A stretch of DNA of 64,000 nt. Source: an uncultured Haloferula sp. (GTDB taxonomy: Bacteria > Verrucomicrobiota > Verrucomicrobiia > Verrucomicrobiales > Akkermansiaceae). How positions within the stretch are numbered: position 1 is the stretch's first letter; each line of letters opens with the position of its first letter. Under the pieces are notes generated by a model. That model saw nothing but the letters and a program-made list of their open reading frames with translations. It was not told the DNA's origin and made no database searches. Below, in pieces: positions 47,442-61,963 of this stretch. The stretch spans positions 32,769 to 96,768 of the forward strand of contig CBFGTS010000017.1 of NCBI GenBank assembly GCA_965652295.1, in the 5' to 3' direction. The position numbers and the translations under genes were made by a program.

Positions 47442-48055
47442 TCGGCGTCGCCGCGGAAGTTGAAATCGACTTCCGGCGGCTTCTCAGACCCCGCCTCGGC
47501 TTCAAAGTAGGGTTTCGGAGTGAAGCCCATCATGCCTGCGAAGACGACCGCGGGAAACTGTCGGATGGTCGTGTTGTAGGCTTGGGCGACCTCATTGAAG
47601 CGGCCCCGCTCGACGGCGATGCGGTTCTCCGTCCCCTCCAGCTGCGCCTGCAAGTCGCGGAAGCCGGCGCTGGCCTTGAGGTCGGGGTAGCGTTCGACGA
47701 CGACCAACAGCCGGGAAAGGGCGCTGCCGAGCTGTTGCTGGCTTTCTTGGAAATCCCGGAGCGCCGTCTCACTGTCCGGAGCGCCGCTTGCATCCAGGTT
47801 CACCTGCCCGACCTTGGCGCGGGCATCGACGATGTCCTGCAGCGTGGATTTCTCGAAATCCGCCGAGCCTTGGACCGTCTTGACCAGATTCGGGACGAGG
47901 TCGGCTCGGCGCTGGTACTGGTTGGCGACCTGTGCCCACGCGGCATCGACCGCCTGTTGCTTGCCAACGAGGCCGTTGTAGGTGCCGACGATGGCGAAAA
48001 TGAAGACGAAGAAGGCCGCGACCAGGCCGAGGAGCACGATGAGTCCCTTTTTCAT
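47438..48055 (-). CDS. lemA: LemA family protein
   Basis: YQRRADLVPNLV, ERYPDLKA and LEGTENRIAVER motifs. Confidence 0.95.
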   Translation of the reverse strand: MKKGLIVLLGLVAAFFVFIFAIVGTYNGLVGKQQAVDAAWAQVANQYQRRADLVPNLVKTVQGSADFEKSTLQDIVDARAKVGQVNLDASGAPDSETALRDFQESQQQLGSALSRLLVVVERYPDLKASAGFRDLQAQLEGTENRIAVERGRFNEVAQAYNTTIRQFPAVVFAGMMGFTPKPYFEAEAGSEKPPEVDFNFRGDAE

Positions 48056-48105
48056 GCCTAGGATCTAACCGCGGCGCGGAGTGCTGTCGATGGGCTTGTG
48101 CGCTC

Positions 48106-48477
48106 TCATCCCTGCCGCTGCTGCATCAGCACGAAGGGCGTGACGACGACCGCCGTGAAAAGCTCGTCGCCGCCCTTCCATTGCGCGGCGTGGAGCTGGC
48201 CGACGCGGACGAGGTCGCCATTTCCAAGCCAGTCGGCGACGCGGGTGGCTTCGTCGTGGATGATCGCGAGAGCGACGTCCTCCAGCGGCAGCGCGGGATC
48301 GACCCAGAGCAGCGCGTCGCGCTTGTAGTGGGGTTTCAGGTAGCTCCAGCGGACGTCTCCGGTGTATTTGGAAATCTTGTCATGCTCGCTGAGCGCGTCT
48401 TCGCCGAGAATGCCGTATTTCATGGGTTCGTCGGAATGCATGCGGATGAGAGTCGGCGTGAAGTCGGCTGGGATCAA
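48106..48477 (-). CDS. DUF2288-like small protein (start uncertain)
   Basis: W..LKPH, VDPAL.L.DV, W and AVVVTPFVLMQ pattern. Confidence 0.7.
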   Translation of the reverse strand: MIPADFTPTLIRMHSDEPMKYGILGEDALSEHDKISKYTGDVRWSYLKPHYKRDALLWVDPALPLEDVALAIIHDEATRVADWLGNGDLVRVGQLHAAQWKGGDELFTAVVVTPFVLMQQRQG

Positions 48478-48553
48478 GGCGGAGAGATGCGCCTCGGGGG
48501 CGGCTTACCTTCCCTTGTCGCGCGCAGATCCGTGGTGTATCCCGACGGGACGC

Positions 48554-51097
48554 ATGAGCGACCCCGTGGTTCTCCAATACTGTCCCGACCTGCTTTCCTA
48601 CACCCGCCGCCGCAGCCGCGAGGTGATGGTGGGAAAGGTGGGCATCGGCGGCGGCCACCCGATCCGGCTTCAATCGATGATCACCGCCGACACGCGCGAT
48701 ACCCCGGCGTGTGTGAAGGAAATCCTGGAGCTGGCGGAGGCGGGCTGCGAGATCGTGCGGGTGACCGCCCAAACGAAGGTTTACGCCGCGAATCTGGAGA
48801 ACATCGCCCGCGAGGTCCGCGCTGCCGGTTGCGAGGTGCCGCTGGTGGCGGACATCCATTTCAAGCCCGATGCCGCGATGGAGGCGGCGAAGTGGGTGGA
48901 AAAGGTCCGCGTGAACCCCGGCAACTACGTGGACAAGAAAAAGTTCGAGGTCCGCGAGTACAGCGACGACCAGTATGAGGAGGAGCTGGAGCGGATCCGG
49001 CAGGAATTTTCGCCGCTGGTGGAGCGGTGCAAAGAGCTGGGCCGGGCGATGCGGATCGGCACCAACCACGGCTCGCTGTCCGACCGCATCATGAACCGCT
49101 ACGGCGACACGCCGCTGGGCATGGTGGAAAGCGCCCTGGAATTCGCCCGGATCGCGCGGGATCTGGATTATCACAACTTTGTGTTCTCGATGAAGGCCTC
49201 GAACCCGAAGGTCATGATCGAGGCCTACCGGCTGCTGGTCGCGCGGCTGGATCAGGAGGGCGATGACTGGAATTACCCGATCCACCTCGGAGTGACCGAG
49301 GCCGGCGATGGCGAGGACGGTCGGATCAAGAGCGCGATCGGCATCGGCTCGCTGCTGGCGGATGGGATCGGCGACACGATCCGTGTCTCGCTGACCGAGG
49401 ATCCGGTGTATGAGATCCCCGTCGCCCGGGTCCTGGCGGAGCCATTTCAGGGAGGTGGCTGCTCCGGCCCGGGGCAGGCCGTGGAGGCTGCGGCTCGCAG
49501 CCGTTCTTTGGCGGCGGATGGTGCGGAGATCGCCATCAACTGGGACGAGGTCGAGAAATCCGACGCGTCATTTCTCCCACACTGGAGCATGCCGGGTGGT
49601 GCTTATGCGGTGACCTTTCGGTTGGAAGACTCCCTGCCGGAAAGCGCGATCCTCGCGTATCGCGAGCGCCGCGAGATCCTGCTCGCCCGACTGGAAAAGC
49701 TGTCCCGAGCCTCCGGTTCGAGGAGTGTCCGCGAGGAGTTGATCCAGCTCCGCGGCGAACTCGCCGGGCTGCGGGAAGCGGTGGTGGAGTCCGAGCTGGA
49801 TCGCAGTCATGGCTCCTGTTTGTTCCGTGACGATCAGCTGGCCGGGTTGGTGGAGGAATGTCTCCATCACTTCGATGGCGTCAGGTATGATCTGTTGGCG
49901 TGGTGCGTGATGCCGAATCACGTTCACGCGGTTTTGCGACCACGGAGCGGGTTCTTGTTGGAAAAGATTCTCCACACTTGGAAGAGCTTCACGGCGCACG
50001 AGATCAACCGGCTGCTCCAGCGGGAAGGGACCATCTGGGAGAAGGAGAGCTACGATCATTTGGTTCGCGACGGCGCGGATCTCCGGCATCAGGTGGAGTA
50101 TGTGTGTCGGAATCCCGGCAAGGCGGGGTTGCAGGGATGGCGGTGGGTGGGGAGTGCGTATGAGGTGGATGGCGTTGCGGCGGGCCGCCGCAACCACGGT
50201 CTGCCCCGGGCCGGGGCAGCCACGGATGCTTCCCAGCCCGCCCCTTCCTACGACCCATTCTCCTATGCTCGCCGTAGTTCGGAGGTGATGGAAATCGCCG
50301 GCCTCGAGCTGGGAGGCGACCGGGAGATCCGGGTCTTCACCTCGCAGGAAAAATGGAACGCGGTGGCCCACAAGATCGCGAAAATGGGCGACTTCAAGCC
50401 GGAGATCGTGGTGGAGAAATCGGGCGTGGTGGTGATCGATCCCCGCGACGAGGCCGCCCTCCACGACATCAACACCATCGAAGGAACCCGTCTGGTGACG
50501 GTGGCGGACGGGCTCGACCTGGCACCGATCCACGCCTTCCGGATGCTGGCTTTCCGCCTGGACGCCCGGCACCCGATCCTGCTCAAGGACACCTTGCAGC
50601 CCGCGGCGGAAAGCGGGGACTTCGTGGAAACCCTGCTGGTCGCGGCCCGCAACCTCGGCTCGCTGATCTGCGATGGCATCGGTGACGCGGTGCTGGTGCA
50701 AGGGGAGCCGGCGCCAGGGCAGTCCCTGCGACTTTCCTACAACATCCTCCAGGCCTCCGGCGCGCGGATTTTCAAAACCGACTACGTGGCCTGTCCGAGC
50801 TGCGGGCGGACCTTGTTCAATCTCCAGACGACAACCCAGAAGATCCGCGCGGCGACCGGCCACCTCAAGGGCGTGCGGATCGCGGTGATGGGCTGCATCG
50901 TCAACGGCCCCGGCGAGATGGCGGATGCGGACTTCGGCTACGTCGGCGGCGCGCCGGGGAAGATCAACCTGTACGTGGGCAAGCAGGCGGTGAAATTCAA
51001 CATTCCGGAAGGCGAGGCGGTCGAGCGGCTGATCGATCTGATCCGCGAGCACGGCAAATGGATCGACGCGCCGGCAGGCGAACCGGTGGAAGTCTGA
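48554..51097 (+). CDS. ispG: (E)-4-hydroxy-3-methylbut-2-enyl-diphosphate synthase, long type, with an in-frame RAYT insertion
   Basis: QSM, VADIHF, RVNPGN, RIGTNHGSL, HLGVTEAG, DTIRVSLT, CPSCGRT and MGCIVNGPGE motifs; 847 aa. Confidence 0.95.
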   Translation: MSDPVVLQYCPDLLSYTRRRSREVMVGKVGIGGGHPIRLQSMITADTRDTPACVKEILELAEAGCEIVRVTAQTKVYAANLENIAREVRAAGCEVPLVADIHFKPDAAMEAAKWVEKVRVNPGNYVDKKKFEVREYSDDQYEEELERIRQEFSPLVERCKELGRAMRIGTNHGSLSDRIMNRYGDTPLGMVESALEFARIARDLDYHNFVFSMKASNPKVMIEAYRLLVARLDQEGDDWNYPIHLGVTEAGDGEDGRIKSAIGIGSLLADGIGDTIRVSLTEDPVYEIPVARVLAEPFQGGGCSGPGQAVEAAARSRSLAADGAEIAINWDEVEKSDASFLPHWSMPGGAYAVTFRLEDSLPESAILAYRERREILLARLEKLSRASGSRSVREELIQLRGELAGLREAVVESELDRSHGSCLFRDDQLAGLVEECLHHFDGVRYDLLAWCVMPNHVHAVLRPRSGFLLEKILHTWKSFTAHEINRLLQREGTIWEKESYDHLVRDGADLRHQVEYVCRNPGKAGLQGWRWVGSAYEVDGVAAGRRNHGLPRAGAATDASQPAPSYDPFSYARRSSEVMEIAGLELGGDREIRVFTSQEKWNAVAHKIAKMGDFKPEIVVEKSGVVVIDPRDEAALHDINTIEGTRLVTVADGLDLAPIHAFRMLAFRLDARHPILLKDTLQPAAESGDFVETLLVAARNLGSLICDGIGDAVLVQGEPAPGQSLRLSYNILQASGARIFKTDYVACPSCGRTLFNLQTTTQKIRAATGHLKGVRIAVMGCIVNGPGEMADADFGYVGGAPGKINLYVGKQAVKFNIPEGEAVERLIDLIREHGKWIDAPAGEPVEV
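49455..50223 (+). mobile_element. REP-flanked RAYT/Y1 tyrosine-transposase module inserted in frame in ispG
   Basis: LPHW, VTFRL.DSLP, VMPNHVH, KSFTA, WEKESYDHLVR and YVCRNP motifs; 30-bp terminal inverted repeat (28/30). Confidence 0.9.
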
Positions 51098-51099
51098 CC

Positions 51100-51378
51100 A
51101 TGCCGGCCACTGAGACAGTCACGGAAACGAGCGTCGGCATCGATGTGCCGTGGAACGTCGTCGTGCATGACGACCCGGTGAACCTGATGGCCTATGTGAC
51201 CTGGGTTTTCATGAAGGTTTTTTCGTATTCGCAAGGTCGGGCGGAGGAGCTGATGCTGGAGGTTCATCAGGCTGGGCGCTCGATCGTCTGGACCGGCGAC
51301 CGCGAGCGGGCGGAGCTGTATACGCATCAGTTGCAGGGCTTCCAGCTCAGGACCACCATGGAAAAGGCGGCGGAATGA
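51100..51378 (+). CDS. clpS: ATP-dependent Clp protease adaptor ClpS
   Basis: WNVVVHDDPVNLMAYV and MLEVHQAG motifs. Confidence 0.92.
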   Translation: MPATETVTETSVGIDVPWNVVVHDDPVNLMAYVTWVFMKVFSYSQGRAEELMLEVHQAGRSIVWTGDRERAELYTHQLQGFQLRTTMEKAAE

Positions 51379-51821
51379 AGGCGGCTCCGACGTTGGATGG
51401 CAGGCTGCGGATCGATCTCGAAAGCGAGGCCGACGCGCTGGTGCTGATGTCGATCGTGGCCGATGCCGGTGGGCGCGTCAGCGAGCTGTCGGAGGATGTG
51501 GCGGGCGTGATGCCCGGGGAGTTGGAGGAGGATTGGCAGGAATTCGTGATGCCGGAGCTGCGGGTGCGTTTCGGCGGCCAGATCGCGCACGTGGCCCAGC
51601 AGGTGAGCCCTTTGAGCGAGGGCGACACGTTGTTCATCGGCGGAGACGAGGCGGAGGAGTGGTTCGGCACGCTCAACCAAGCGCGGCTGGCGCTGGAGGC
51701 GCGCTATCATTTCGCCTCGCGGGGTGCGGGGGAAGCGGACACGGAAGTCCGCAGCGCCGGGATCCGCTCGCGTTTCTACCTGATGCTCCAGGGGTTGATC
51801 CTCGATTTCCTCATGAAATGA
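51375..51821 (+). CDS. DUF2017-like protein
   Basis: DWQEFVMPEL and W..TLNQARLAL; translationally coupled to clpS. Confidence 0.7.
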   Translation: MKAAPTLDGRLRIDLESEADALVLMSIVADAGGRVSELSEDVAGVMPGELEEDWQEFVMPELRVRFGGQIAHVAQQVSPLSEGDTLFIGGDEAEEWFGTLNQARLALEARYHFASRGAGEADTEVRSAGIRSRFYLMLQGLILDFLMK

Positions 51822-52734
51822 GGGGGCGCACGGCCTGGAAGACGCGCTCGACGGATAGCTCCCGCTGGCAGCGCAGGTCCATGAGGCATTTCGCCGCGAA
51901 GCAGGGCGCGCACTCCGCCTTCTGACGCACGGCGATGTGCTGCCTGCCGAGGGGACGGTGAAGTACCGGCTCGCCGGGCCCATAGAGCACGGCACAGGTT
52001 GCACCGAAGGCTCCGGCGAAATGCGGCCAGGGGGACTCTGCGGCGATCATCGAGCGGCAACGGACGAGCACTTCGGGGGCGTCGGCCGCGTTGATCACGG
52101 GGAGCTCGTGGCTCTCCGCCCAAGCGGCGATGTCGGGACGGTCGGCCAGCACTTGGATCGCGGCATGGAGCGGGCGGATCGATTCCAGCAGTTCCGACCA
52201 ACGTTCGAGCGGCCATTCGAAATGCGAGCCGAAGGAGCTTCGGGGCGAGAGGATCAGGGAGTCGCCGCGCGTCTCGGGTGCGGCCAGGGGCGCGAAAAAG
52301 CGGCTGTCGAAGGGGTCGCAGCCGAGTTCGCTCGCGAGGCCGAGGTAGAAGCGGACGACGTGTTGCATCGCGCCGGGCGGATCGTCTCGCTGGATCGGAC
52401 ATGTGAGTCGTTTCGCGAGGCGCGGGTTGTCCGGCCCGATGCGCTGGGGCACCTTGGCGCGGACGGCGGCATCCGCCAGCACGCCGGGTTCCCAGAGCAG
52501 GATTTCCGGGGCATCGGCGAAGGCGGAAACGGCCGTGCGCTTGGTGGCGGCGTCCGCCACGGGCCGGACTTCACCGAGGCTGGCCGCGCGCCACAGGAAG
52601 GCTTGGTTCTCGTGGCAGACCAGTGTCACCGGCCGGCGGGCGGCCAGCGCCCTGACGGCGGGAAGAGAGAAGCAGGCATCGCGACCGCAGCGCGGCGCGG
52701 CGATCCAAAGGGGAGTGTCTTCAGAGCGGGTCAT
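51811..52734 (-). CDS. glycosyltransferase family 9 (heptosyltransferase-like)
   Basis: GRDA...LP, WP.ERW, ES...H.A.A.G, YGP and CAPCF...C motifs. Confidence 0.8.
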   Translation of the reverse strand: MTRSEDTPLWIAAPRCGRDACFSLPAVRALAARRPVTLVCHENQAFLWRAASLGEVRPVADAATKRTAVSAFADAPEILLWEPGVLADAAVRAKVPQRIGPDNPRLAKRLTCPIQRDDPPGAMQHVVRFYLGLASELGCDPFDSRFFAPLAAPETRGDSLILSPRSSFGSHFEWPLERWSELLESIRPLHAAIQVLADRPDIAAWAESHELPVINAADAPEVLVRCRSMIAAESPWPHFAGAFGATCAVLYGPGEPVLHRPLGRQHIAVRQKAECAPCFAAKCLMDLRCQRELSVERVFQAVRPLIS

Positions 52735-53354
52735 GGAGCGGCGGGCACATCGACATCGATCCGGTGCGGGATCGGAAAGGCAGCGGGCTGGTGGAAATCG
52801 GGCTCCGCACCCGGGAGCCCGGCGACGGAGAGATGGCGTGGGGTGGCTGAACCCAACATGAAAGTCAGGTTGGCGGGACTTGAGTCGCTGAAATCCAGCT
52901 CCTTGCGGAGAAAATCAAGCGGCAGCGACATTGCCGCGACCCATGAGCCGGGGCGGCTGAGGTCGGCGTGGGTTTCGAAAGGGAAGTCCGGCTGGTAGGA
53001 GGACCGCTGGCGGGGAGCGTCGAACAGGCAGGCCCAGTGGGCGCCGTTCGGGGCGAGATTGATTTCCAGGTAACGGCGGCGCTGGGGGTGGGCGATGAAA
53101 AGTTCGACCACATCGTGGTGCCAGAGGCCTTCGATGAAGCGGCCTGCGGATGAGCCGGGCATCAGGTCGGGCCCGCTCTCGCGGCTGGCGATGATCCAGA
53201 GCGCCTCGGTGTCCTCCACCAGGCACCAGCCGGGCGGGGGATCGACCGGTTTTCCGAACCAGTCGCGCCCGGCACCGAAGAGCGGAACGTCCATTTCTCC
53301 CCAGTGGAGGGTGTGGCGGGTCCGGAGGATTTGCATCGCGGGGAGCCTCATCAA
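52731..53354 (-). CDS. hypothetical DOMON/CBM9-like protein
   Basis: GLWHHDVVELFI, YLEINLAPNG.HW and PDFH motifs. Confidence 0.65.
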   Translation of the reverse strand: MMRLPAMQILRTRHTLHWGEMDVPLFGAGRDWFGKPVDPPPGWCLVEDTEALWIIASRESGPDLMPGSSAGRFIEGLWHHDVVELFIAHPQRRRYLEINLAPNGAHWACLFDAPRQRSSYQPDFPFETHADLSRPGSWVAAMSLPLDFLRKELDFSDSSPANLTFMLGSATPRHLSVAGLPGAEPDFHQPAAFPIPHRIDVDVPAAP

Positions 53355-53472
53355 CCCGCGCCGCCCTGTCCAGACCTGCGGGTCGGCGGCAATGGTGCGC
53401 AGTGAATCGGAAATCCGTGCAAATCAGCCATTGAGTTTCTCCGGGAAGTCCGATAGCCCCATAGGGCAACCA

Positions 53473-54267
53473 ATGGCCCGCCGCAAATCCGCCTATCTGG
53501 GGACGATCGAATACATCGGTCCCCGGCCGAAGAAAGCTCCCAAGCGCCCGAATTTTCTGGCTGGATGGGTGGTGCTTTTGCTGGCGGCGAGCGGCGTGTA
53601 TTTCATCGGAAAGCCGTTGATCCTGCCGTTGGTGGAAGCGCAGGAGAACATCGCTTCGGTCGAGAACACGGACGAAGCGATCTCCAGGCTGCGGCAGGAC
53701 GGCGAATTTGGTTCCAAGCTGGCCGCCGCGGCATTGGCGCGGACGCAGGAGTCGGTGCAGTACGAGGACAGCTACTTCCAGATCGCCTATCCGAACGGCG
53801 ATATTCCCGCCGACAAGGGCAAGGCCGAGGATGTGGTCGTGCGAGCCTATCGAGCCTTGGGCGTGGATCTGCAACAGCGGGTTCACGAAGACATGAAGGA
53901 TCATTTCGCGGACTATCCGCAGATCTTCGGCCGCCGGATGGCGGATTCGAATATCGACCACCGTCTCACCGCCAATCTCCAGCGGTTCTTCCGCCGGGCT
54001 GGCGCGGAGATCACGGTGATGGATCCGTTGGGCAATCCGGTGCCAAGCCGGAACGTGGGGGACTACGAGCCGGGTGACATCGTGGCTTGGCGGTTCGCCG
54101 GAGGAGCCAGCCACATCGGGGTGGTGGTTCCGGGGCCGGCGGAGGCTTCGGGCGAACGCTGGGTCGTTCACAACCTGGGTCAGGGGCCCGTCTGGGAGAA
54201 CTGCCTGTTCAACTTCAAAGTCACCGGGCATTACCGCTATCAGGGCGACGAGGCGGTTGACCGCTGA
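53473..54267 (+). CDS. DUF1287 (YijF-like) protein
   Basis: YPNGDIP, DVVVRAYR.LG.DLQ..VHED, NIDHR, HIG and HN.G.GP motifs. Confidence 0.85.
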   Translation: MARRKSAYLGTIEYIGPRPKKAPKRPNFLAGWVVLLLAASGVYFIGKPLILPLVEAQENIASVENTDEAISRLRQDGEFGSKLAAAALARTQESVQYEDSYFQIAYPNGDIPADKGKAEDVVVRAYRALGVDLQQRVHEDMKDHFADYPQIFGRRMADSNIDHRLTANLQRFFRRAGAEITVMDPLGNPVPSRNVGDYEPGDIVAWRFAGGASHIGVVVPGPAEASGERWVVHNLGQGPVWENCLFNFKVTGHYRYQGDEAVDR

Positions 54268-54479
54268 GTCAGCCTGGCGTGCCAGAGTGAAGCGGATTCG
54301 CTGGATTTGATCGCAGCGACGGCGGTCGGCTGTGGATGCGGAAGCCGGATCCCCTTTCTCGATCGGAACCGGGTGGGATCCATCCGCCTCTCCCGGGTGC
54401 GGAGCGGTCACTCTTTGGAATCGAGGGCTTCACGAGGGGTCCGATCCAGCCCTGATGCGGCGGATTGCGTGGAACGGGG

Positions 54480-54590
54480 GAAAATACGCATGCGTAACTA
54501 ATTGAGGATAAGACATAGACGAAGAAAAGAAACTTATTTGAGGGATAACATTCAAATCACCGATTGGAGATATGCAGGAATTTTTTTCCA
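54480..54590 (+). promoter_or_regulatory. AT-rich promoter region upstream of the LysR pair
   Basis: Abrupt AT-rich stretch (taactaattgag, aaagaaacttatttg) in a GC-rich background. Confidence 0.4.
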
Positions 54591-55490
54591 GTGACTAGCG
54601 GACGACACATTCCGGATTTCTATCACCTCCGGGCCTTCATGGCTTTGGTTAATGAGGGACGGGCGGGTGCGGCCGCAACGGCCCTCCAAACGAGTCAGGG
54701 AAACCTGCGGCGGATGGTGAACCAACTGGAGAGTTGGGCTGGCGCGCCATTGTGCCAATCCGGGGGTGGGGGAGAGGTGAAGCCGACGACCATGGGTCGG
54801 AAGCTGATGGAGGGGTATCCGTCCCTGATGGAAGCCTGCCGGGAGTTCCAGGCGAAAGTGGACCGCATTCATCACCGCGGCCGTCTTCTGCGGGTGGGGG
54901 TGGACGAGGGGCTCTTCCGAAGCCGCCTGTTTGGCAGGGTGGTGGCCCTGCTCCGGCGCGACGGTCGCTTCCGCCCGGTGCCGGTTCGCGCGGATTCGTC
55001 CGGTCTCAGCTCGTTGGAGAGCGGGGCATCGGATCTTCTGATCTCGACCGTGGAATGGAAAGGCAGGCGGACCTCGACACGGGTCGTCGGGCGGTTCGGG
55101 CTCAGTCTGCTTTCCCACCGCTGGGAGCGCCGCGAGGCACCCCGGCTCCAAGATGTCTCCGAGCGGGGGTTGTATCTCTCCCCCGCCGTTTCCGAGGCAT
55201 GCGGTTCACGGCTTTCGGCGGAGTGTCGGACGTTGGAATGCGGGGCATGCTGCCACCGGTTGGCTCCAGCCGAGTTCGTAAGCTGGCGGGAATCCGGAGG
55301 CGAGCGCCCCTTCTGCGCCGTGGTGGACAACGAGGTGGATCTGAACGGTTTCGAAGGATCCGTGCATCCTTTTCCCGGCGAGTTTTTGTCAACGCTGACG
55401 GTCACCCGTTTATTAAATCATCCCTATCCATTTCTTGAAGAAGTGACCGGTCGGCTTGCCTTCCATTTCGGGCCGCAGCACATCATCTGA
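54564..55490 (+). CDS. divergent LysR-family transcriptional regulator (start uncertain)
   Basis: HLRAF..L...G....AA..L..SQ......NQLE...G..L HTH, then LRVG; about 300 aa. Confidence 0.75.
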   Translation: MEICRNFFPVTSGRHIPDFYHLRAFMALVNEGRAGAAATALQTSQGNLRRMVNQLESWAGAPLCQSGGGGEVKPTTMGRKLMEGYPSLMEACREFQAKVDRIHHRGRLLRVGVDEGLFRSRLFGRVVALLRRDGRFRPVPVRADSSGLSSLESGASDLLISTVEWKGRRTSTRVVGRFGLSLLSHRWERREAPRLQDVSERGLYLSPAVSEACGSRLSAECRTLECGACCHRLAPAEFVSWRESGGERPFCAVVDNEVDLNGFEGSVHPFPGEFLSTLTVTRLLNHPYPFLEEVTGRLAFHFGPQHII

Positions 55491-55491
55491 C

Positions 55492-56427
55492 ATGGACCTT
55501 GAGGGACTCTCCACCTTCGTTCTTCTCGCGGAACATGGCTCGGGCTCGCAAGTTGCGAGGCTGCAGGGCCTGAGTCAGGCAGCCGTGAGTCAGCGGATTT
55601 CGCGGGTGGAGTCGGCTTATGGCGTGAGGCTTTTCGTGCGTCTGGGAGAGGGCATGACCCTGACCGAGGAGGGCCGCCTGCTTTTGCCTGACGCCCAGCG
55701 GATTCTCCAGCGACTGGTCGATCTCGGTGCCTCGGTGACGCGGGCGGATCGCGACGAGCAGGGCGTCACGCGGATCCTCGTCGATCAGTCGATCCGGGGT
55801 GAGCGGCTGGTAAAGCGGTTGCAGGGGATCTCCACCGTGGATCTCGTCCGGGTGCTCCCCCAAACCTCGTGGGCGACATCCCTGGAGGTCGGGGAAAGCG
55901 ATCTCGTTTTCCAATCCACCTGCGGGCCGCTGTCGGAAATTCCCGGATTGCAGCGGATCGAACTGAAGTTCCAGTCGGGAATCTCCTTCGCATGGAATCC
56001 GGAAAGCCTGCCGATTGCGGAAGCCGCGGGGATCGAAGTGCTGCTGCGGGAAACCCTCATCGTGCCTTCGGAGGAGCTGATTCCAGGTTTTGGAAAGCTG
56101 GTCGAACTGTTGGGAGCCAAGTCGCTCATCTCAGGAAACCTCGTGACGGTGGAAGTGCATTCCGAACTCGATGCGCGCGAGGCATGCACCCACGGGATCG
56201 GCGTGCTGTTCTTTCCCGGGGATGCCATTGCCCGCCTCGGACTCGACTCCACACAGCTGGCAAGCCGCCGTGCGATGGAGTTCTCCATGCCGAAGTCATA
56301 CCGGGTGAATCTATTCGCCCGGGAGGACGAGGCCCGTCCGCATGTGTTGGAGGTCATCAGACAATTCGTCCGCCCCGGCACGAAAAAGGACGCCGTCAAT
56401 GGCTCTTCTGATATTTTCCGAGACTGA
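55492..56427 (+). CDS. LysR-family transcriptional regulator
   Basis: MDLEGLSTFV.LAEHGS...SQAAVSQRISRVE..YGVRLF.R...LTEEG HTH. Confidence 0.85.
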   Translation: MDLEGLSTFVLLAEHGSGSQVARLQGLSQAAVSQRISRVESAYGVRLFVRLGEGMTLTEEGRLLLPDAQRILQRLVDLGASVTRADRDEQGVTRILVDQSIRGERLVKRLQGISTVDLVRVLPQTSWATSLEVGESDLVFQSTCGPLSEIPGLQRIELKFQSGISFAWNPESLPIAEAAGIEVLLRETLIVPSEELIPGFGKLVELLGAKSLISGNLVTVEVHSELDAREACTHGIGVLFFPGDAIARLGLDSTQLASRRAMEFSMPKSYRVNLFAREDEARPHVLEVIRQFVRPGTKKDAVNGSSDIFRD

Positions 56428-56505
56428 ATAATTAATCTCCAATAAAAGATTGATTACCTAAAGTGCTCGGCAGCCGCCCGGGGTCTCGGCGAGTCTTCCG
56501 CCATC

Positions 56506-57336
56506 ATGAATCTTCTACATCCCGCGGCTGCCGTGGCCGCTCTGATGGCCATTCCTGTGGCGACCGCCCAGTCGTTTGTGGATCCGACCACTTATCCTGA
56601 TCTTTTCGGTCCCGTCGGATCCGTCGAGGTGGAAGCGCCCCCGCCCGCGGTCCTCGGGTTGACCCTCGGAGGCAATGCCTCGGGTGCCTTGGGCAGCCAC
56701 TGGCAAGCCGCCGCCGATGGCGGTGCCTCGCTTTCCCTGCTGGGAGGTGGGCTCCTCGAAACAGGGGCCGTGGTCGGGCTCACCGGCAGCTCGCTTGAGT
56801 TCGATATCTCGAATGGCTCCGACGCCTTTCTGAGCGCTCTTTCCATCGGGGCGTCGCTTTCTTATGGCTGGACGGCTACCGCGACGTTCGACGCAGCCGG
56901 GTCGGAGTGGGTTCTCGCTCCGGACACGCTCTATCAAGTCAGCTTCGATCTGTTGGGCAGCGACACGCTGTTCAGCTCGACCGGCGGTCTGACACCTTCG
57001 TTTTCCGTGGAACTTCTGGATGGCGGAGGAAACGCGGTGGCCAGCAACGGCGGCGACACCGTAGTCAACATCCTCGGGCTCTCCCTGGCACCCGTCGTGG
57101 GGAATCCGGTCGGTGACAGCCGGGCGACAATGACCTTTCTCACGCCATCATCGGTCGATGGCGGGGCGGCATCCCTGCGCTTTGTCGGTGATGCCGAGCT
57201 GACCGCGACGGCGCTGGGCCTCGGAACCGATTTCGCCACCATTTCGAATCTTCAGGTGACTGCGGTGCCGGAACCGGCCGCGTTTCTGACCTTCGCCGGC
57301 TCGCTGCCCCTGTTGCTGCTGCGCCGGCGGCGATGA
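56506..57336 (+). CDS. PEP-CTERM sorting domain protein
   Basis: Signal peptide and C-terminal VPEP-TM-RRRR. Confidence 0.9.
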   Translation: MNLLHPAAAVAALMAIPVATAQSFVDPTTYPDLFGPVGSVEVEAPPPAVLGLTLGGNASGALGSHWQAAADGGASLSLLGGGLLETGAVVGLTGSSLEFDISNGSDAFLSALSIGASLSYGWTATATFDAAGSEWVLAPDTLYQVSFDLLGSDTLFSSTGGLTPSFSVELLDGGGNAVASNGGDTVVNILGLSLAPVVGNPVGDSRATMTFLTPSSVDGGAASLRFVGDAELTATALGLGTDFATISNLQVTAVPEPAAFLTFAGSLPLLLLRRRR

Positions 57337-57384
57337 CTTTACACGGTTGTGTGTGGAGCCCCGTGGGTGTTAAGGGGACGACTA

Positions 57385-57417
57385 AAGGGGCGGGCCTTGG
57401 CAAGAGGCCCGCCCCTT
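57385..57417 (+). terminator. stem-loop after the PEP-CTERM gene (probable terminator)
   Basis: aaggggcgggcc / ggcccgcccctt 12-bp stem followed by catgtttt. Confidence 0.5.
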
Positions 57418-57513
57418 CATGTTTTCGCGAAACCGGGGCGGCTTCCCGGGCTTTACTCGGCTCCGGGATTTCCCCATCGTCCCGCCCCTTCGTTTCCAAC
57501 GACTCCCGCGCCC

Positions 57514-60500
57514 ATGACCGCCGCCGAAATCCGCCAGTCCTTCCTCGATTTCTTCAAGGAGAAGCAGCACACCGTCGTGCCCTCCGCCTCGCTCCTGCCG
57601 CAGTCGCCCGGCCTGCTTTTCACCAATGCGGGAATGAACCAGTTCGTGCCCTATTTTCTTGGCACCGACAAGGCACCCTACAACCCGCCGCGTGCCGCGG
57701 ACACGCAGAAATGCATCCGCGCCGGGGGCAAGCACAACGACCTCGAGGACGTCGGCTACGACACCTACCACCACACGATGTTCGAGATGCTCGGGAACTG
57801 GTCGTTCGGCGACTACTTCAAGCCCGAGGCCATCCGCTGGGCGTGGGAACTGGTGGTCGAGCGCTGGGGCGTGCCCGCCAACCGCCTCTACGCCACCGTC
57901 TATGCGCCGGACAAGGCGAAGGGTGATCCCGGTGAATTCGACCAGGAAGCGTGGGACATCTGGGCCGAGCTGTTCCGCGGAAAGGGTCTCGATCCCCGCG
58001 TGCACATCGTCGATGGCAACGTGAAGGACAACTTCTGGATGATGGGCGAGACCGGCCCCTGCGGCCCGTGTTCGGAGCTGCATGTTGATCTCACGCCGAA
58101 CGGCGATTCGAACGGCCAGCTCGTCAACGGCGACTCCGACCTCTGTATCGAGATCTGGAACCTCGTCTTCATCCAGTACAACGCCGAGGCCGACGGTTCC
58201 TTCCGCGAGCTACCCGCCAAGCACATCGACACCGGCATGGGCTTCGAGCGCGCCTGCTCGATCATCCAGAACACCAAAGGTTTCACGGATTTCTCGGTGA
58301 AACCCAGCAACTACGCCACCGACGTTTTCACCCCGATCTTCCGCAAGCTGGAGGAACTCAGCGGCAAAACCTACGTCAACATCTACCCCGAGCCCGGTGC
58401 CGACCGCTCGGCCTTCAGCGAGGAGATGAAAACGGCCATCGCCTTCCGCGTGATCGCCGACCACCTGCGGACGCTCAGCTTTTCCATCGCCGATGGCATC
58501 CTGCCCGGCAACAACGGCCGCAACTACGTCCTCCGTCGTATCTTGCGCCGCGCCGTCCGCTACGGCCGCCAGCTCGGCTTCTCCGGCGACAAGCCGTTCT
58601 TCGGCGCGCTGGTCTCGACGCTGGTGGAGCAAATGGGCGGCGTCTTCCCCGAACTCAAGGAACGCGAAGCCGCCGTGCGGGTGACGCTGGAACGGGAAGA
58701 GGCGAGCTTCAATGAGACGCTGGACCGGGGGTTGAAGCGCTTCGAAGACGCGGTCGGGACGGGGAGCGCCGGCGTCCCGCCCGGTCCTTCTTCTCCCGCC
58801 GAAGGCCCACGCTATTCCAAGCACCATGGCCTCCCTCACTTCGAACGTCCTTGGGGCAAGTATCTGATCACGGTTTCCACCGACCAGCGGTGTGAGCTGT
58901 CTGAAGAAGCTCGGGAGATCGTGCTCAATGCCATCCGTCACTTTCACCCCGACCGTTACGTTCTCTTCGCAGCAGTGGTGATGCCGGATCATTTCCATAT
59001 GCTCATCGAGCCTCAGCCAAAGACCCATGGTGCCGATGGCACCCCGGAGTTCTGGGAACTCGGGGAGTTGATGCATTCGATCAAATCTTTCACCGCGAAG
59101 GAGATTAACAAGCTCACTGGTGGTGCCGGGACGGTATGGGAACGGGACTACCACGATCGATTGATCCGCTCGGAGTCCGACCTCCAGGAGAAGTTCTCGT
59201 ACGTCACCTCGAATCCGTCGCGAGCCGGATTGACCCGAGATGACGATTACCCATTCGTCTGGTCCCAAGGGTGGAGCGAGGGTTCCAGGGAAGACTTCCG
59301 GCAGGATGCCGGAAGCAGCCGGCGGGACGCCGGCGCTCCCCGTCCCGTCACGACGCTCTCCGGCGAAATCGCCTTCGAACTCTACGACACCTTCGGTTTC
59401 CCCATCGACCTCACCGAGCTGCTCTGCGCCGAACGTGGCATCAAGGTCAACATGCAGCGCTTCGAAGAGCTGATGGAGCGGCAGCGTGAGCGCGCCCGTG
59501 CGGCGCAGAAATCGACGGTCGTCCGCGCGCTCGACATCTCCACCGAAGCGATCACCGCCTTCACCGGCTTCGATGGCGATGAAGCGGAGGCCCTCGTGCT
59601 CGAAGTCCACGAGCAGGAGGACGCGCTTTTCATCATCACCGACAAAACGCCCTTTTACGCCGAAATGGGCGGCCAGGCCGGCGATACCGGAACGCTCGTT
59701 AAAGAGGCCGTGGCCGTGAGCGTCACCCACGTGCAACAAATCGGCCGCGCCCGCGCGCATGCGGTTTCCAAATCGGAAATCTCCAATCTCCAATCTTCAA
59801 TCCAGCCCGGCGACACGGTGAAGCTCCGCATCGACGCCAAACGCCGTCGCCCGATCGAGGCCCACCACACCGCCACCCACCTCCTCCACTGGGCCTTGCA
59901 CGAGGTCGTTTCGAGCGACGCGGCGCAGCAGGGTTCGTCGGTCGATGACACCCGCCTGCGGTTCGACTTCAACAGCGCGCCGGTCACGCCGGAGCAGATC
60001 GAGGCGATGGAGGAAAAGGTGAACGCCTGCATCGCCGCCGATCAGCCGGTTTCCTGGAAGGAAGTGCCGCCCGCCGAGGTCAAGGATCGCAAGGATGTGA
60101 TGCAGTTCTTCGGTGACAAGTACGGAGATACGGTGCGCGTCGTACAAATCGGCGGCACGCCGGGCGCGATTGATGGCTACTCGATGGAACTCTGCGGCGG
60201 CACCCACGTCCGCACGACCGGCGAGATCGGGCTTTTCAAGATCAAGAGCGAGGGGGCGATCGCCTCCGGCGTGCGGCGGATCGAAGCCGTCTGCGGCGAG
60301 AGCGCGTGGGAGCACCTGCGCGAGGTGGTGGCACAGCTTGATGAGGAATCCGACAACCTGCACGCCAAGCTTTCCGCGGCGAACGCACGTCTCTCGGAAC
60401 TCGGTGAGGAGCCGCTTCAGGTGGGCGAGGCCCCGCGCATCATGATGGCGATGCTCACGGAGAAGGGCGACGTCACCCAGATCAACCACACGCTCAACAT

Positions 60501-60933
60501 GGTCCGCGTGAAGCTCGATGAGCTGCGCGAGGCGGGCATTGAGGCGGAGAAGAAGGTGAAGAAACTGCAAGCCTCCTCCGCCGCCAAGCAGGCCGATGCA
60601 GCGTTGGCTTTGCTCATCGAGCAAGGCGGCCCGATCGTCACCTCTTTGGAATCGGACGCCTCGTTGCTGCAAGAGCTGCTCAACGGGCTGAAGAAAAAGC
60701 AGTTCGCGGAAGCGGCGTTCCTGATCGTGGACGATGGCGAGAAGCTCCACCTCGGCACCTACTGCGGCGAGGCGGCGCTGGGCCGGGGTCTCAAGGCGGG
60801 CGACCTGCTGCGCGAGCTGGCGGCGATCGCCGGCGGCAAAGGCGGCGGCAAACCGGACATGGCCCGCGGTGCCGCACCCGAGCGCGTGAAGCTGACGGAG
60901 ATGGAAGAGGCGGCGAAAGCGAAGCTCGCCTAG
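57514..60933 (+). CDS. alaS: alanine--tRNA ligase with an in-frame RAYT insertion
   Basis: FTNAGMNQF, FEMLGNWSFGDYFK, GPCGPCSE, DTGMGFER, LYDTFGFP, HTATHLLH, ELCGGTH and GGKGGG motifs; 1139 aa. Confidence 0.97.
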   Translation: MTAAEIRQSFLDFFKEKQHTVVPSASLLPQSPGLLFTNAGMNQFVPYFLGTDKAPYNPPRAADTQKCIRAGGKHNDLEDVGYDTYHHTMFEMLGNWSFGDYFKPEAIRWAWELVVERWGVPANRLYATVYAPDKAKGDPGEFDQEAWDIWAELFRGKGLDPRVHIVDGNVKDNFWMMGETGPCGPCSELHVDLTPNGDSNGQLVNGDSDLCIEIWNLVFIQYNAEADGSFRELPAKHIDTGMGFERACSIIQNTKGFTDFSVKPSNYATDVFTPIFRKLEELSGKTYVNIYPEPGADRSAFSEEMKTAIAFRVIADHLRTLSFSIADGILPGNNGRNYVLRRILRRAVRYGRQLGFSGDKPFFGALVSTLVEQMGGVFPELKEREAAVRVTLEREEASFNETLDRGLKRFEDAVGTGSAGVPPGPSSPAEGPRYSKHHGLPHFERPWGKYLITVSTDQRCELSEEAREIVLNAIRHFHPDRYVLFAAVVMPDHFHMLIEPQPKTHGADGTPEFWELGELMHSIKSFTAKEINKLTGGAGTVWERDYHDRLIRSESDLQEKFSYVTSNPSRAGLTRDDDYPFVWSQGWSEGSREDFRQDAGSSRRDAGAPRPVTTLSGEIAFELYDTFGFPIDLTELLCAERGIKVNMQRFEELMERQRERARAAQKSTVVRALDISTEAITAFTGFDGDEAEALVLEVHEQEDALFIITDKTPFYAEMGGQAGDTGTLVKEAVAVSVTHVQQIGRARAHAVSKSEISNLQSSIQPGDTVKLRIDAKRRRPIEAHHTATHLLHWALHEVVSSDAAQQGSSVDDTRLRFDFNSAPVTPEQIEAMEEKVNACIAADQPVSWKEVPPAEVKDRKDVMQFFGDKYGDTVRVVQIGGTPGAIDGYSMELCGGTHVRTTGEIGLFKIKSEGAIASGVRRIEAVCGESAWEHLREVVAQLDEESDNLHAKLSAANARLSELGEEPLQVGEAPRIMMAMLTEKGDVTQINHTLNMVRVKLDELREAGIEAEKKVKKLQASSAAKQADAALALLIEQGGPIVTSLESDASLLQELLNGLKKKQFAEAAFLIVDDGEKLHLGTYCGEAALGRGLKAGDLLRELAAIAGGKGGGKPDMARGAAPERVKLTEMEEAAKAKLA
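58755..59347 (+). mobile_element. REP-flanked RAYT/Y1 tyrosine-transposase module inserted in frame in alaS
   Basis: LPHF, YLITVST, VMPDHFH, KSFTA, WERDYHDRLIR and YVTSNP motifs; perfect 27-bp terminal inverted repeat. Confidence 0.9.
59770..59802 (+). repeat. 7-mer tandem repeat inside alaS
   Basis: aaatcgg aaatctc caatctc caatctt caatc, read as KSEISNLQSSI. Confidence 0.7.
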
Positions 60934-60940
60934 CCTTCAT

Positions 60941-60976
60941 CCAAGGAGCGGCGGTCAATGCCTGCCGCTCCTTTGG
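60941..60976. terminator. stem-loop between the convergent alaS and hypothetical genes
   Basis: ccaaggagcggc...gccgctcctttgg hairpin. Confidence 0.6.
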
Positions 60977-61003
60977 GCTCTGCAACCCATTGGCTCGTTG
61001 GGG

Positions 61004-61963
61004 TCAATTGGCGGCGGCGGCCTGCGGGCTGAGCGCCTGCCGGAGGTCGGCCTCCCACTCGCGCGCCTTGCTGTGGGTCACATTCTCTTCGAGGTGCTCG
61101 ACGAGCGCGACGACCGCCTTTTTCTGATCGCCCGACTGGAAGGCATCCATTTCCCTGCGCCACTCGAGGTCCGGCTTCGTTTCGCGGAGAAACTCGGCGC
61201 GGTTCGGGTGGTTCCCCTCTTCGGCGAGTTCCTCCATGTGCTTGTCCTCCTGTTTGTCGTCGCCCGTCCAGAAGCCGGCGATGACTTCCTCGAAGTGGAT
61301 GCGCCGGTCCCATGCCTCCCGCAGGCCCGCGTAATCCTTCTTCGCTCGGAAATAAGGCAACACCGCCTTTTCGAAGGTCTCGCCCAGTTCGATCTCTTTC
61401 TCCTCCTTCTGGATGGGTGCCGCGGGCCAGTCCTTCAAGCGGTCGCCGCGGATGCCGTAGGCTTTCGCGAAAATCGTCTCATTCATCGGCGTGGCGAGAA
61501 AGCCGGTGTGTCGGGCGAGTGCCTTGGGATCGCGGAAGATACCTTCCAGGCATTCGAGGGTTTCGGGGCCGAGCTGGTTCGCCTGGGTCGGTTTGGCGGA
61601 TGCCTTCAGCGAGAGCATGAGCCAGCGGATCTGGTGGCGGATGGCGGTTCCGAAGCCGTCGGATTCCAGCTGGCCACGGTTCCGGCGACGCCACTCGCGA
61701 AAGTCATTCGAGCTCCGCTTCGCGGAGAGGAAGTCGGCCTGCTCGACGCATTGGAGGTAGAGATCGAAGGCTGCCTTGTCGTTTTCCATCGCCTTCCTGA
61801 GGGCGGCGGACGCGTCGCTGAGCCGGGTCGTTGCCTTTTTTCCTGCTTCCTCCTTGAAGGAATCGAGCCGTTCCAGGACCTGCTGGCGATCGGCATCGCT
61901 CAGGGTTTCAGCGCGGAGCATGGGGGAAAGGAGCACGAGCAGTGCGGCGAGTGGGGTTTTCAT
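61004..61963 (-). CDS. hypothetical exported helical protein
   Basis: Signal peptide MKTPLAALLVLLSPMLRA followed by a charged helical body. Confidence 0.75.
   Translation of the reverse strand: MKTPLAALLVLLSPMLRAETLSDADRQQVLERLDSFKEEAGKKATTRLSDASAALRKAMENDKAAFDLYLQCVEQADFLSAKRSSNDFREWRRRNRGQLESDGFGTAIRHQIRWLMLSLKASAKPTQANQLGPETLECLEGIFRDPKALARHTGFLATPMNETIFAKAYGIRGDRLKDWPAAPIQKEEKEIELGETFEKAVLPYFRAKKDYAGLREAWDRRIHFEEVIAGFWTGDDKQEDKHMEELAEEGNHPNRAEFLRETKPDLEWRREMDAFQSGDQKKAVVALVEHLEENVTHSKAREWEADLRQALSPQAAAAN

Follow-up and report, generated by a model that had tools for sequence, protein, structure and literature searches.

Repetitive extragenic palindromic (REP) sequences, the REP doublets forming hairpins (REPINs) and the REP-associated tyrosine transposases (RAYTs) are regarded as residents of intergenic DNA, the transposase genes being free-standing and present in single copy. 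Here we describe two RAYT genes with a different kind of residence. Both lie in a stretch of 64,000 nucleotides (hereafter the window) from an uncultured Haloferula sp., a soil bacterium whose own genome is labelled G000 in the genome comparisons, and each of them is found, together with its flanking REP hairpins, within the reading frame of a single-copy essential gene, namely ispG and alaS. With a probability of roughly 0.6, judged from sequence evidence, these cassettes are old, largely vertically inherited REPtrons, which would be translated as internal domains of their host enzymes and would still be active on their own REPs.

The accessible part of PMC3479197 describes the Escherichia coli RAYT, TnpAREP, as a monomer with its own active site blocked by a C-terminal tail, and assigns roles to the residues H59, H61 and Y115. 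Intragenic REPs were reported for Opitutus terrae by Di Nocera et al. 2013 (in the portion consulted of PMC3733652), and in the survey of Quentin et al. 2018 (PMC6006769, likewise consulted in part) unexpectedly long proteins were dropped as fusions or annotation errors. In the literature searched, covered in part and with the supplements of PMC3733652 outside the search, the comparable cases found were in-frame REPs only; a RAYT lying within the reading frame of a host was not described.

The RAYT cassettes within ispG and alaS

The open reading frame (ORF) at 48362-51097 on the plus strand encodes IspG/GcpE, with a Pfam GcpE match of 417.8 bits that is broken into two stretches. The likely true start is at 48554, and the 847-aa database protein P0003 is 100% identical to the product. 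Between the GcpE halves, the Pfam domain Y1_Tnp was identified at 24.1 bits (cut-off 23), and the NCBIfam family REP_Tyr_transpos (NF047646) matched residues 494-590 of the ORF at 68.8 bits (cut-off 80). The inserted RAYT displays the motifs LPHW (at 49574), HVH as its histidine-hydrophobic-histidine (HUH) motif (49919-49927), and EYVCRNP with the catalytic tyrosine (within 50096-50116). Its two arms are inverted, 47 nt long and 85% complementary. The insertion is situated in a variable linker that joins the TIM barrel to the next domain (Table 1).

The second ORF, at 57349-60933 on the same strand, encodes AlaRS. Here as well, the matches to the alaS family TIGR00344 (795.6 bits) and to tRNA-synt_2c (588.5 bits) are both divided into two stretches, and the likely true start at 57514 agrees with the database protein P0123 (1139 aa). 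Within the insert, NF047646 reaches 85.1 bits against its cut-off of 80, with residues 498-636 covering model positions 5-145 of 146, and Pfam Y1_Tnp stays at 18.3 bits, under the cut-off of 23. The motifs are LPHF (at 58831), HFH (HUH, 58990-58998) and SYVTSNP (tyrosine, 59197-59217), and the inverted arms measure 36 nt. No PDB sequence match was obtained for this insert at E<=0.01. Both cassettes lie in sense orientation and in the frame of the host, contain no internal stop codons and lack start and stop codons of their own. The G+C content in the studied stretch of the window is 61-69%.

An earlier note, made from the letters of the window, had called attention to two REP-flanked, sense, in-frame RAYT inserts at these places, and profiles, arms and frames uphold it in every particular. 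The inserts are also independent of each other, as the note had presumed, with RAYTs of different subfamilies and with REP heads of GTGG in IspG and of GGAG type in AlaRS. Its placing of both in inter-domain or linker positions agrees with the allele alignments, where a length-variable linker is seen in IspG and a length-variable loop in AlaRS.

Table 1. Positions in the window of the two insert-bearing genes and of the parts of their RAYT cassettes.
Feature	Position	Strand	Basis
ispG coding sequence, insert-bearing, 847 aa from MSDPVV...	48554..51097	+	GcpE profile; single tblastn locus; database protein P0003
Left arm of IspG cassette: two REP hairpins with a GTGG head each; translated linker (..GCSGPGQAVEAAARS..)	49455..49501	+	Arm search; AlphaFold2 (AF2) predicted local distance difference test (pLDDT) <50, residues 301-316
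RAYT (HUH/Y1) domain within IspG	49559..50161	+	Profiles, 4ER8 alignment, fold model
Right arm of IspG cassette: reverse complement of left arm; translated linker (..AAGRRNHGLPRAGAAT..)	50177..50223	+	Arm search; AF2 pLDDT <50, residues 538-563
alaS coding sequence, insert-bearing, single copy, 1139 aa from MTAAEIR...	57514..60933	+	tRNA-synt_2c, TIGR00344, database protein P0123
Left REP arm of AlaRS cassette: GGAG-type head and GC-rich palindrome, translated	58755..58790	+	Inverted-arm and hairpin analysis
RAYT domain within AlaRS, short subfamily	58831..59256	+	NF047646 profile; family tree
Right REP arm of AlaRS cassette, 92% complementary to left arm	59312..59347	+	Inverted-arm and hairpin analysis

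Scanning the whole of G000 with NF047646 gave 11 matches, including six clear RAYT loci (found by a hidden Markov model (HMM) scan of our own and also scored by NF047646 at E<=1e-15). Three of these six are embedded in frames of essential enzymes, i.e. IspG, AlaRS and MetH, whose genes ispG, alaS and metH occur in one copy each. The MetH case is situated outside the window, at 248833-253374 of contig C3 (locus L007), and consists of a 1514-aa MetH frame with the RAYT within the activation domain.

Conserved residues, fold and covarying arms

In the IspG-RAYT fusions of public data, the two HUH-motif histidines (H456 and H458), the catalytic tyrosine (Y516) and the N-P following it are invariant (58 out of 58). 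When embedded and solo RAYT domains are taken together, the HUH motif and the tyrosine are invariant in all 54. The IspG RAYT aligns to PDB entry 4ER8 at E=2.3e-5, and its catalytic residues are thereby matched with H59, H61 and Y115 in the TnpAREP protein of E. coli. At the position where free-standing RAYTs start, no conserved methionine was found in the embedded RAYTs aligned.

A fold search with the whole IspG fusion returned IspG and TIM-barrel matches alone, and the RAYT domain was therefore also modelled separately. On its own it reached a pLDDT of 92.5, with 4er8_A as the top PDB fold match (E=6.9e-8, template modelling (TM) score 0.66 by target), followed by TnpA proteins of the IS200, IS608 and ISDra2 kind, with 2xma, 2vjv and 2f4f among the fold matches. 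When the fusion was modelled in full (pLDDT 78.2), the RAYT and IspG domains were both folded, and the only long segments of low confidence near the insert were the REP-coded arms.

The dN/dS ratio, which the earlier note had proposed to examine at the HUH and tyrosine residues, was estimated for the RAYT core. By the method of Nei and Gojobori (NG86), omega was 0.11-0.31 for the RAYT core in 10 out of 15 pairs and 0.07-0.19 for the host parts, values that are rough because dS is saturated, the RAYT-core dS being not computable in five of the 15 pairs and otherwise >1.3 (host dS 0.55-1.2).

The REP arms change between species, and they do so in pairs. One stem is shared by the IspG arms of G000, G045, G047 and G021, a second is found in G003 and a third in G046, and inside any one of these genomes the two arms agree, with the GTGG head retained. 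Similarly, the AlaRS arms of G000 differ from those of G006, yet they match inside each genome. As the arms thus covary between species, and as database proteins with this architecture number in the hundreds, the anatomy of the cassettes is more than a product of chance. The long-term maintenance of both the frame and the RAYT residues furthermore favors translation by read-through.

Distribution within the genus

The genus set consisted of 35 genomes, and the IspG alignment of 31 alleles, four genomes with split or partial genes being left out. End-to-end IspG matches that include the insert were found in six of the genus genomes. The 31 alleles are made up of six with full inserts, all at one site, 23 that are empty, one mini-element and one footprint. 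The mini-element, in the ispG of G021 (L035), has kept both double-hairpin arms and has its RAYT deleted in frame; it is a REPIN-like element, born in place. In the footprint, situated in the ispG of G011 (L047), a single palindrome is left. Loss of the insert does consequently occur, since these two scars prove deletion. In a species tree based on the host portions of both IspG and AlaRS (30 genomes, 1480 columns), the IspG carriers and both scars belong to one clade of 15 genomes, seven of which are empty, with linkers of normal length; the 15 genomes outside this clade are all empty. A single gain followed by at least six losses fits this pattern best, and six separate gains may be the alternative.

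Among the IspG carriers, the host parts are 83-89% identical and the insert 45-72%. When the insert was compared with the species topology, the approximately unbiased (AU) test gave p=0.046, and the Kishino-Hasegawa (KH) and Shimodaira-Hasegawa (SH) tests both 0.06. The species topology is hence rejected only at the border, so that this test decides nothing on horizontal spread. Between different internal hosts, the identity of cassettes and RAYTs does not exceed 62%, and no recent jump is therefore seen. This low cross-host identity, the confinement to one clade and the faster divergence of insert than host together suggest old, mostly vertical residents with repeated loss.

In AlaRS, two out of 32 alleles (G000 and G006) contain the RAYT, ten have an unrelated extra stretch of 27-138 aa at the loop (L062, L077, L079, L080, L083-L085, L087, L088 and L090), and 20 have a short loop. 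The loop is accordingly length-tolerant, as judged from the varying allele lengths at the equivalent of window positions 58750-59360. No likeness to decayed RAYT remnants was seen for the ten extras in the alignment, to which the comparison was confined, no profile test having been made. A 3-nt direct repeat surrounds the AlaRS cassette, GTC..GTC in G000 and GTT..GTT in G006. With no more than two cases it is not taken for a target duplication, and no such repeat is seen at the IspG cassette.

The earlier note had named two outcomes that would speak against it: inserts that are at once fixed, vertically inherited and catalytically decayed across the clade, and assembly chimerism. Fixation does not apply, the distribution being patchy (six of 31 IspG and two of 32 AlaRS alleles). 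Inheritance does appear to be mostly vertical, and decay is not seen, with HUH and tyrosine invariant. Chimerism is contradicted by contigs from other studies, as described further below.

REP families in the genome

The REP that flanks the MetH cassette in inverted orientation, F1, is present in 43 copies in G000 (at most two mismatches), many of them as inverted pairs about 90 nt apart, i.e. in a REPIN arrangement. It constitutes the most abundant REPIN family of this genome, and its k-mers head the list of repeated 14-mers. No RAYT other than the MetH-embedded one was found beside F1 copies in G000, where the solo RAYTs are flanked differently. The families of the two window cassettes are smaller, with eight copies of the IspG-type REP (at most three mismatches) and 12 of the AlaRS-type REP (at most two mismatches) in G000, own arms included. 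For the arm motif of G003, seven copies were counted in that genome, versus none for the reversed control.

These data bear on the possibility that the inserts are inert relics, that is, old neutral extra domains in which the RAYT no longer cuts and is retained only since its misfolding would harm the host enzyme. Such relics would be expected to be old and largely vertical, as the inserts are, and the small IspG- and AlaRS-type REP families, an insert evolving several-fold faster than its host and the sub-threshold NCBIfam score of the IspG RAYT all suit them. Constraint on the fold alone, however, leaves the complete invariance of HUH and tyrosine in both datasets unexplained, and nothing in this explanation accounts for the matched arm changes between species with the GTGG head kept, or for a 43-copy REPIN family whose sole adjacent RAYT is embedded in MetH. 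We consider relics of this kind rather unlikely.

REPs without a RAYT were also observed inside reading frames of G000, in UvrA, PurL and LeuRS. The UvrA frame (C7:140863-146721, L124) contains one IspG-type and one AlaRS-type REP, while PurL (C2:77933-81733, L127) and LeuRS (C1:249858-254384, L126) have in-frame REPs of another family. In the DUF5107-TPR gene of G000, an F5 REP was considered as a scar of the RAYT seen in G002, G045 and G046, and rejected owing to its different position; the RAYT site itself is cleanly empty in G000. Another observation in this genome is a second, longer HUH/Y1-like family with frames of 345-392 aa, an HFHLL motif and weak NF047646 matches (C20:3931-4965, C6:142054-143229, C29:7773-8888 and C1:131179-131850).

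Breadth of hosts and relationships of embedded RAYTs

Forty relatives were scanned, with 150 RAYT matches listed and 235 further matches outside the listing. Among the matches listed, 22 out of 150 lie in frames of at least 565 aa. Twenty of these long frames are from genomes other than G000, and in 16 of them the RAYT is inside a recognised protein, with host Pfam domains on both sides. The hosts are AlaRS, IspG (two), LeuRS (six), RecG, an Eco57I-type methylase, DUF5107-TPR proteins (two), a GT1 glycosyltransferase, peptidase U32 and CarB. In the remaining four, the RAYT has a terminal or uncertain place: N-terminal to a NUDIX domain, after MnmG, after CinA, and in a 914-aa frame in which no other domain was recognised. 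The scan for Y1_Tnp fused to core genes of relatives, as suggested by the earlier note, has thereby yielded 16 embedded cases in 20 long frames. Another 13 frames were found in the genus, 12 of which were scanned with Pfam and represent MetH (two), LeuRS (three), peptidase U32 (two), DUF5107-TPR (two) and C-terminal CinA fusions (three); the thirteenth is a solo RAYT of 322 aa.

Similar proteins were sought in protein databases, limited to those more than 1.75 times the length of the query. With the IspG-type RAYT as query, 328 long proteins were recovered (E<=1e-10, among 8000 scored). GcpE was present in 98 of the best 120, and the other hosts in these best 120 included MetH, Rad3-type helicases, HsdR (one named as Zavarzinella, a planctomycete), Sua5, LeuRS and UvrA. 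The AlaRS-type RAYT gave 448 long proteins (E<=1e-8, among 3372 scored), chiefly AlaRS, as well as ThrRS, RecG, MetH, CarB and DnaE, with source names that include Luteolibacter, Opitutaceae, Ereboglobus and Chthoniobacter. A chorismate-binding enzyme is a further host. In total, public in-frame RAYT fusions amount to hundreds, mostly from Verrucomicrobiota. The class of in-frame elements postulated in the earlier note is thus real and wide; the current mobility it ascribed to them is not borne out, given a cross-host identity of at most 62%. In the databases such proteins are annotated as e.g. 'alanyl-tRNA synthetase/REP element-mobilizing transposase RayT' or 'alanine--tRNA ligase-related protein', and the latter annotation may mislabel a genome's only alaS.

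In a tree of RAYTs, those of IspG, MetH, peptidase U32 and DUF5107 proteins form a clade of embedded members only (support 0.89), in which the IspG inserts are monophyletic (0.98). The LeuRS RAYTs fall in two clades near solo RAYTs and occupy two slightly different positions past the editing domain. Those of AlaRS and RecG make up a separate, short subfamily, distinct from that of the IspG RAYT. The MetH cassettes of G047 (L092), G000 (L007) and G018 (L094) share the same host site, with a different REP in G047, and the RAYT of G047 groups with DUF5107 RAYTs (0.98), those of G000 and G018 with peptidase U32 (0.999). As one site holds two RAYT lineages, it has either been colonised twice or had its cassette swapped.

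Two side observations concern the architecture of the fusions. The IspG proteins P0004 and P0005 (1133 and 1141 aa) gave scores close to those of a self-match at just 47-59% identity, and may, from their sequences, carry two RAYT cassettes. In the cinA genes of G018, G047, G010 and G045 (L021, L097, L099 and L100), the RAYT is located C-terminally in the same open frame, and the closest relative of the CinA-following RAYT in G046 is a solo gene; these frames may represent end-fusions, or else reading through into a neighbouring gene.

The range of hosts is of importance for the idea of exaptation, by which the RAYT would have been recruited for a role in the host, e.g. single-stranded nucleic-acid binding or regulation of the enzyme. 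Purifying selection on the RAYT core would be in line with this, and many of the hosts indeed handle nucleic acids (AlaRS, LeuRS, ThrRS, RecG, UvrA, DnaE, HsdR and Rad3-type helicases). The list nevertheless includes unrelated metabolic enzymes too, i.e. IspG, MetH, CarB, peptidase U32, Sua5 and the chorismate-binding enzyme. Relatives also manage without the insert, 23 of 31 IspG alleles being empty and 30 of 32 AlaRS alleles devoid of RAYT, and the REPs are kept as DNA palindromes, for which a role at the protein level has no need. Exaptation is, in our judgment, improbable.

Splicing, excision and assembly

No intein, Hint or LAGLIDADG family was found in the IspG and AlaRS proteins at E<=0.01, nor any splice-junction motifs. 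Rfam likewise gave no family match at E<=1 on either strand of window positions 48000-61200, and hence no group I or II ribozyme. The statement in the earlier note that intein and intron features are missing is confirmed by this. In the absence of a Hint/intein domain and of splice motifs, the RAYT domain presumably stays in the mature protein.

Empty-site or excised forms were sought in contigs from four runs of four studies, and no trustworthy joint across either insert was found, within the limits of contigs, which drop rare variants. The joints that were seen have sides of 20-32 nt or unknown letters in between, and are probably derived from other organisms or other REP copies.

The insert might still be removed before translation, either by precise RAYT-mediated excision from the DNA in some cells, or through pairing of the arms in the mRNA that lets ribosomes skip it. 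IS200/IS605-type Y1 transposases do excise seamlessly (accessible part of PMC3479197), the arms could pair over 36-47 nt, and the empty alleles in the carrier clade have linkers of normal length. An insert that is removed would, on the other hand, have no reason to remain in frame and free of stops in all 58 of the IspG fusions and in several hundred others, or to lose its own start and stop codons. No trustworthy empty-site joint was seen in the contigs of the four runs, which drop rare variants, and no intron-like RNA family with Rfam. Excision and mRNA looping-out had both been proposed as alternatives in the earlier note; nothing was found in their support, the upkeep of frame and residues argues for read-through, and we regard removal as quite improbable.

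The left IspG junction is bridged by contigs of other studies (X3, 49136-50222, and X6, 49382-49733), and the AlaRS insert is covered in full by an X3 contig, likewise of another study (58689-59573). The same IspG-RAYT architecture is also found in G003, a genome consisting of one contig, and in isolates that the sources name as Luteolibacter ambystomatis and L. pohnpeiensis. That the inserts are assembly chimeras or mis-joined metagenome contigs is, in view of these bridging contigs and independent genomes, hardly conceivable, even though the window comes from a metagenome assembly and, in other runs, the assemblies are interrupted at these REP arms. In the X3 contig, which is from a related strain, 21 additional in-frame bases follow 58777 in the left arm of the AlaRS cassette, an addition that resembles an extra REP-like unit.

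A proposed origin and way of life

From the anatomy, the shared frame, the patchiness, the conserved catalytic residues, the covarying arms and the breadth of hosts, all of which are observed, the following course of events can be proposed; we infer from them the nuclease activity of the embedded RAYT and its selective logic. Long ago, a complete REPtron, i.e. REP hairpins, RAYT gene and REP hairpins, would have inserted into a single-copy essential gene, at a loop or linker where changes in length are tolerated. It would have entered in sense orientation and in the frame of the host, and would have lost, or never needed, start and stop codons of its own. The ribosome would read through it, so that the RAYT becomes an internal, separately folding domain and the REP arms flexible linkers or tethers. 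To judge from its sequence, the RAYT domain has probably retained its function as a single-strand DNA nuclease/transferase, its substrates being the flanking REPs and the dispersed REP/REPIN copies of its type. By analogy with E. coli TnpAREP, which is a monomer, an inserted RAYT could in principle work alone. The essential frame would supply host-driven expression, and any surviving deletion would have to leave that frame open. The elements might in this manner resist imprecise deletion, as put forward in the earlier note, and in-frame deletion derivatives do exist (G021 and G011). Inheritance would be mainly vertical, with occasional loss by deletion between or within the arms, leaving REPIN-like or hairpin scars.

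Several observations weigh against this proposal. The position of the TnpAREP metal ligand H123 is occupied by alanine in the IspG RAYT, and the MetH/peptidase U32 subclade has histidine in place of the asparagine of the Y..NP motif. With 68.8 bits, the IspG RAYT falls short of the 80 bits demanded by NCBIfam, the omega values suffer from saturation, and the activity of the RAYTs may be low, as the IspG- and AlaRS-type REP families are small. Recent transposition is at odds with the limited cross-host identity. The right IspG junction is bridged by just 26-30 nt in the contigs of other studies, where the rule was 31 nt. Lastly, frame conservation is the sole argument for translation as a fusion.

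A bolder version of the proposal is tentatively advanced. In-frame REPtrons could represent a distinct, phylum-spanning lifestyle of HUH transposases, a non-splicing counterpart of inteins. The fusion would then be an active nuclease that keeps up genome-wide REPINs (the MetH-RAYT and the 43-copy F1 family), and loops of essential proteins would be colonised repeatedly, also by different lineages (MetH in G047 versus G000 and G018), implying homing-like, site-directed insertion.

If the fusions are translated and active, a DNA-cutting domain would be part of AlaRS, of IspG and of MetH. A frame that must not be broken could furthermore serve a mobile-element gene as a hiding place in which it persists, and the IspG of G021 would show how a REPIN originates on the spot once the transposase is deleted. 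Surveys in which 'too long' transposase matches are discarded miss the in-frame RAYT class. Owing to the cultured Luteolibacter carriers, the question is directly testable.

Comparison with known systems

Among the TIRYT elements (TIRtrons; PMC3733652, portion consulted), a likeness is offered by the long terminal inverted repeats, as which the 47-nt IspG arms with their two hairpins each act. The arms found here, unlike those of TIRtrons, are composed of REP units with a GTGG head, further copies of which lie in other parts of the genome, and the gene resides in the frame of a host. IS200/IS605 elements and IStrons have in common with the cassettes a Y1 HUH transposase and subterminal hairpins. 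They differ in that the cassettes lack near-identical multiple copies, TnpB and a group I intron ribozyme; the IS200 profile NF033573 (transpos_IS200) reaches just 17 bits on the insert, against a cut-off of 55, and by family as well as by fold the closest match is RAYT.

Inteins with homing endonucleases offer another parallel, as selfish nuclease elements situated in frame, at a fixed site and with patchy distribution, in conserved essential proteins, and in one host site (MetH) being taken by different element lineages. The nuclease is here an HUH single-strand enzyme and not of the LAGLIDADG or HNH type.

The in-frame REPs of O. terrae and the Rickettsia palindromic elements (RPE) are similar in being palindromic repeats translated within housekeeping genes, e.g. 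uvrA, ligase, helicases and tRNA synthetases, and those of O. terrae mostly have the GTGG head as well (PMC3733652, portion consulted). The arms of the cassettes are translated in the same way, and the G021 mini-element and the REPs in UvrA and PurL are of the same kind. While the described elements consist of the repeat alone, at 20-80 aa (same portion of PMC3733652), a whole transposase gene is found between the repeats in the cassettes.

The closest agreement is with the REPtrons themselves, i.e. those of E. coli (yafM, PDB 4ER8) and the REPIN-RAYT systems of Pseudomonas. Shared with these are an HUH nuclease of the single-tyrosine Y1 type, a 4ER8-like fold (for the IspG insert), inverted REP hairpins as flanks, a tetranucleotide head at the 5' end and a matching REP/REPIN family dispersed in the genome. 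Mostly vertical inheritance, with RAYT and REP changing together, is common to both as well (accessible parts of PMC3479197, PMC5581495 and 10.1101/2021.07.10.451892). The heads of REPtrons are GTAG, whereas those found here are GTGG or of GGAG type, and the IspG-type RAYT has, in the fold model, an additional long helical hairpin compared with described RAYTs. Described RAYTs are moreover free-standing, and usually one per REP type, in contrast to the RAYTs found here, each of which would be read as an internal domain of IspG, AlaRS or MetH. In-frame REPtrons, apparently undescribed, are a real and widespread variant of this known type of element.

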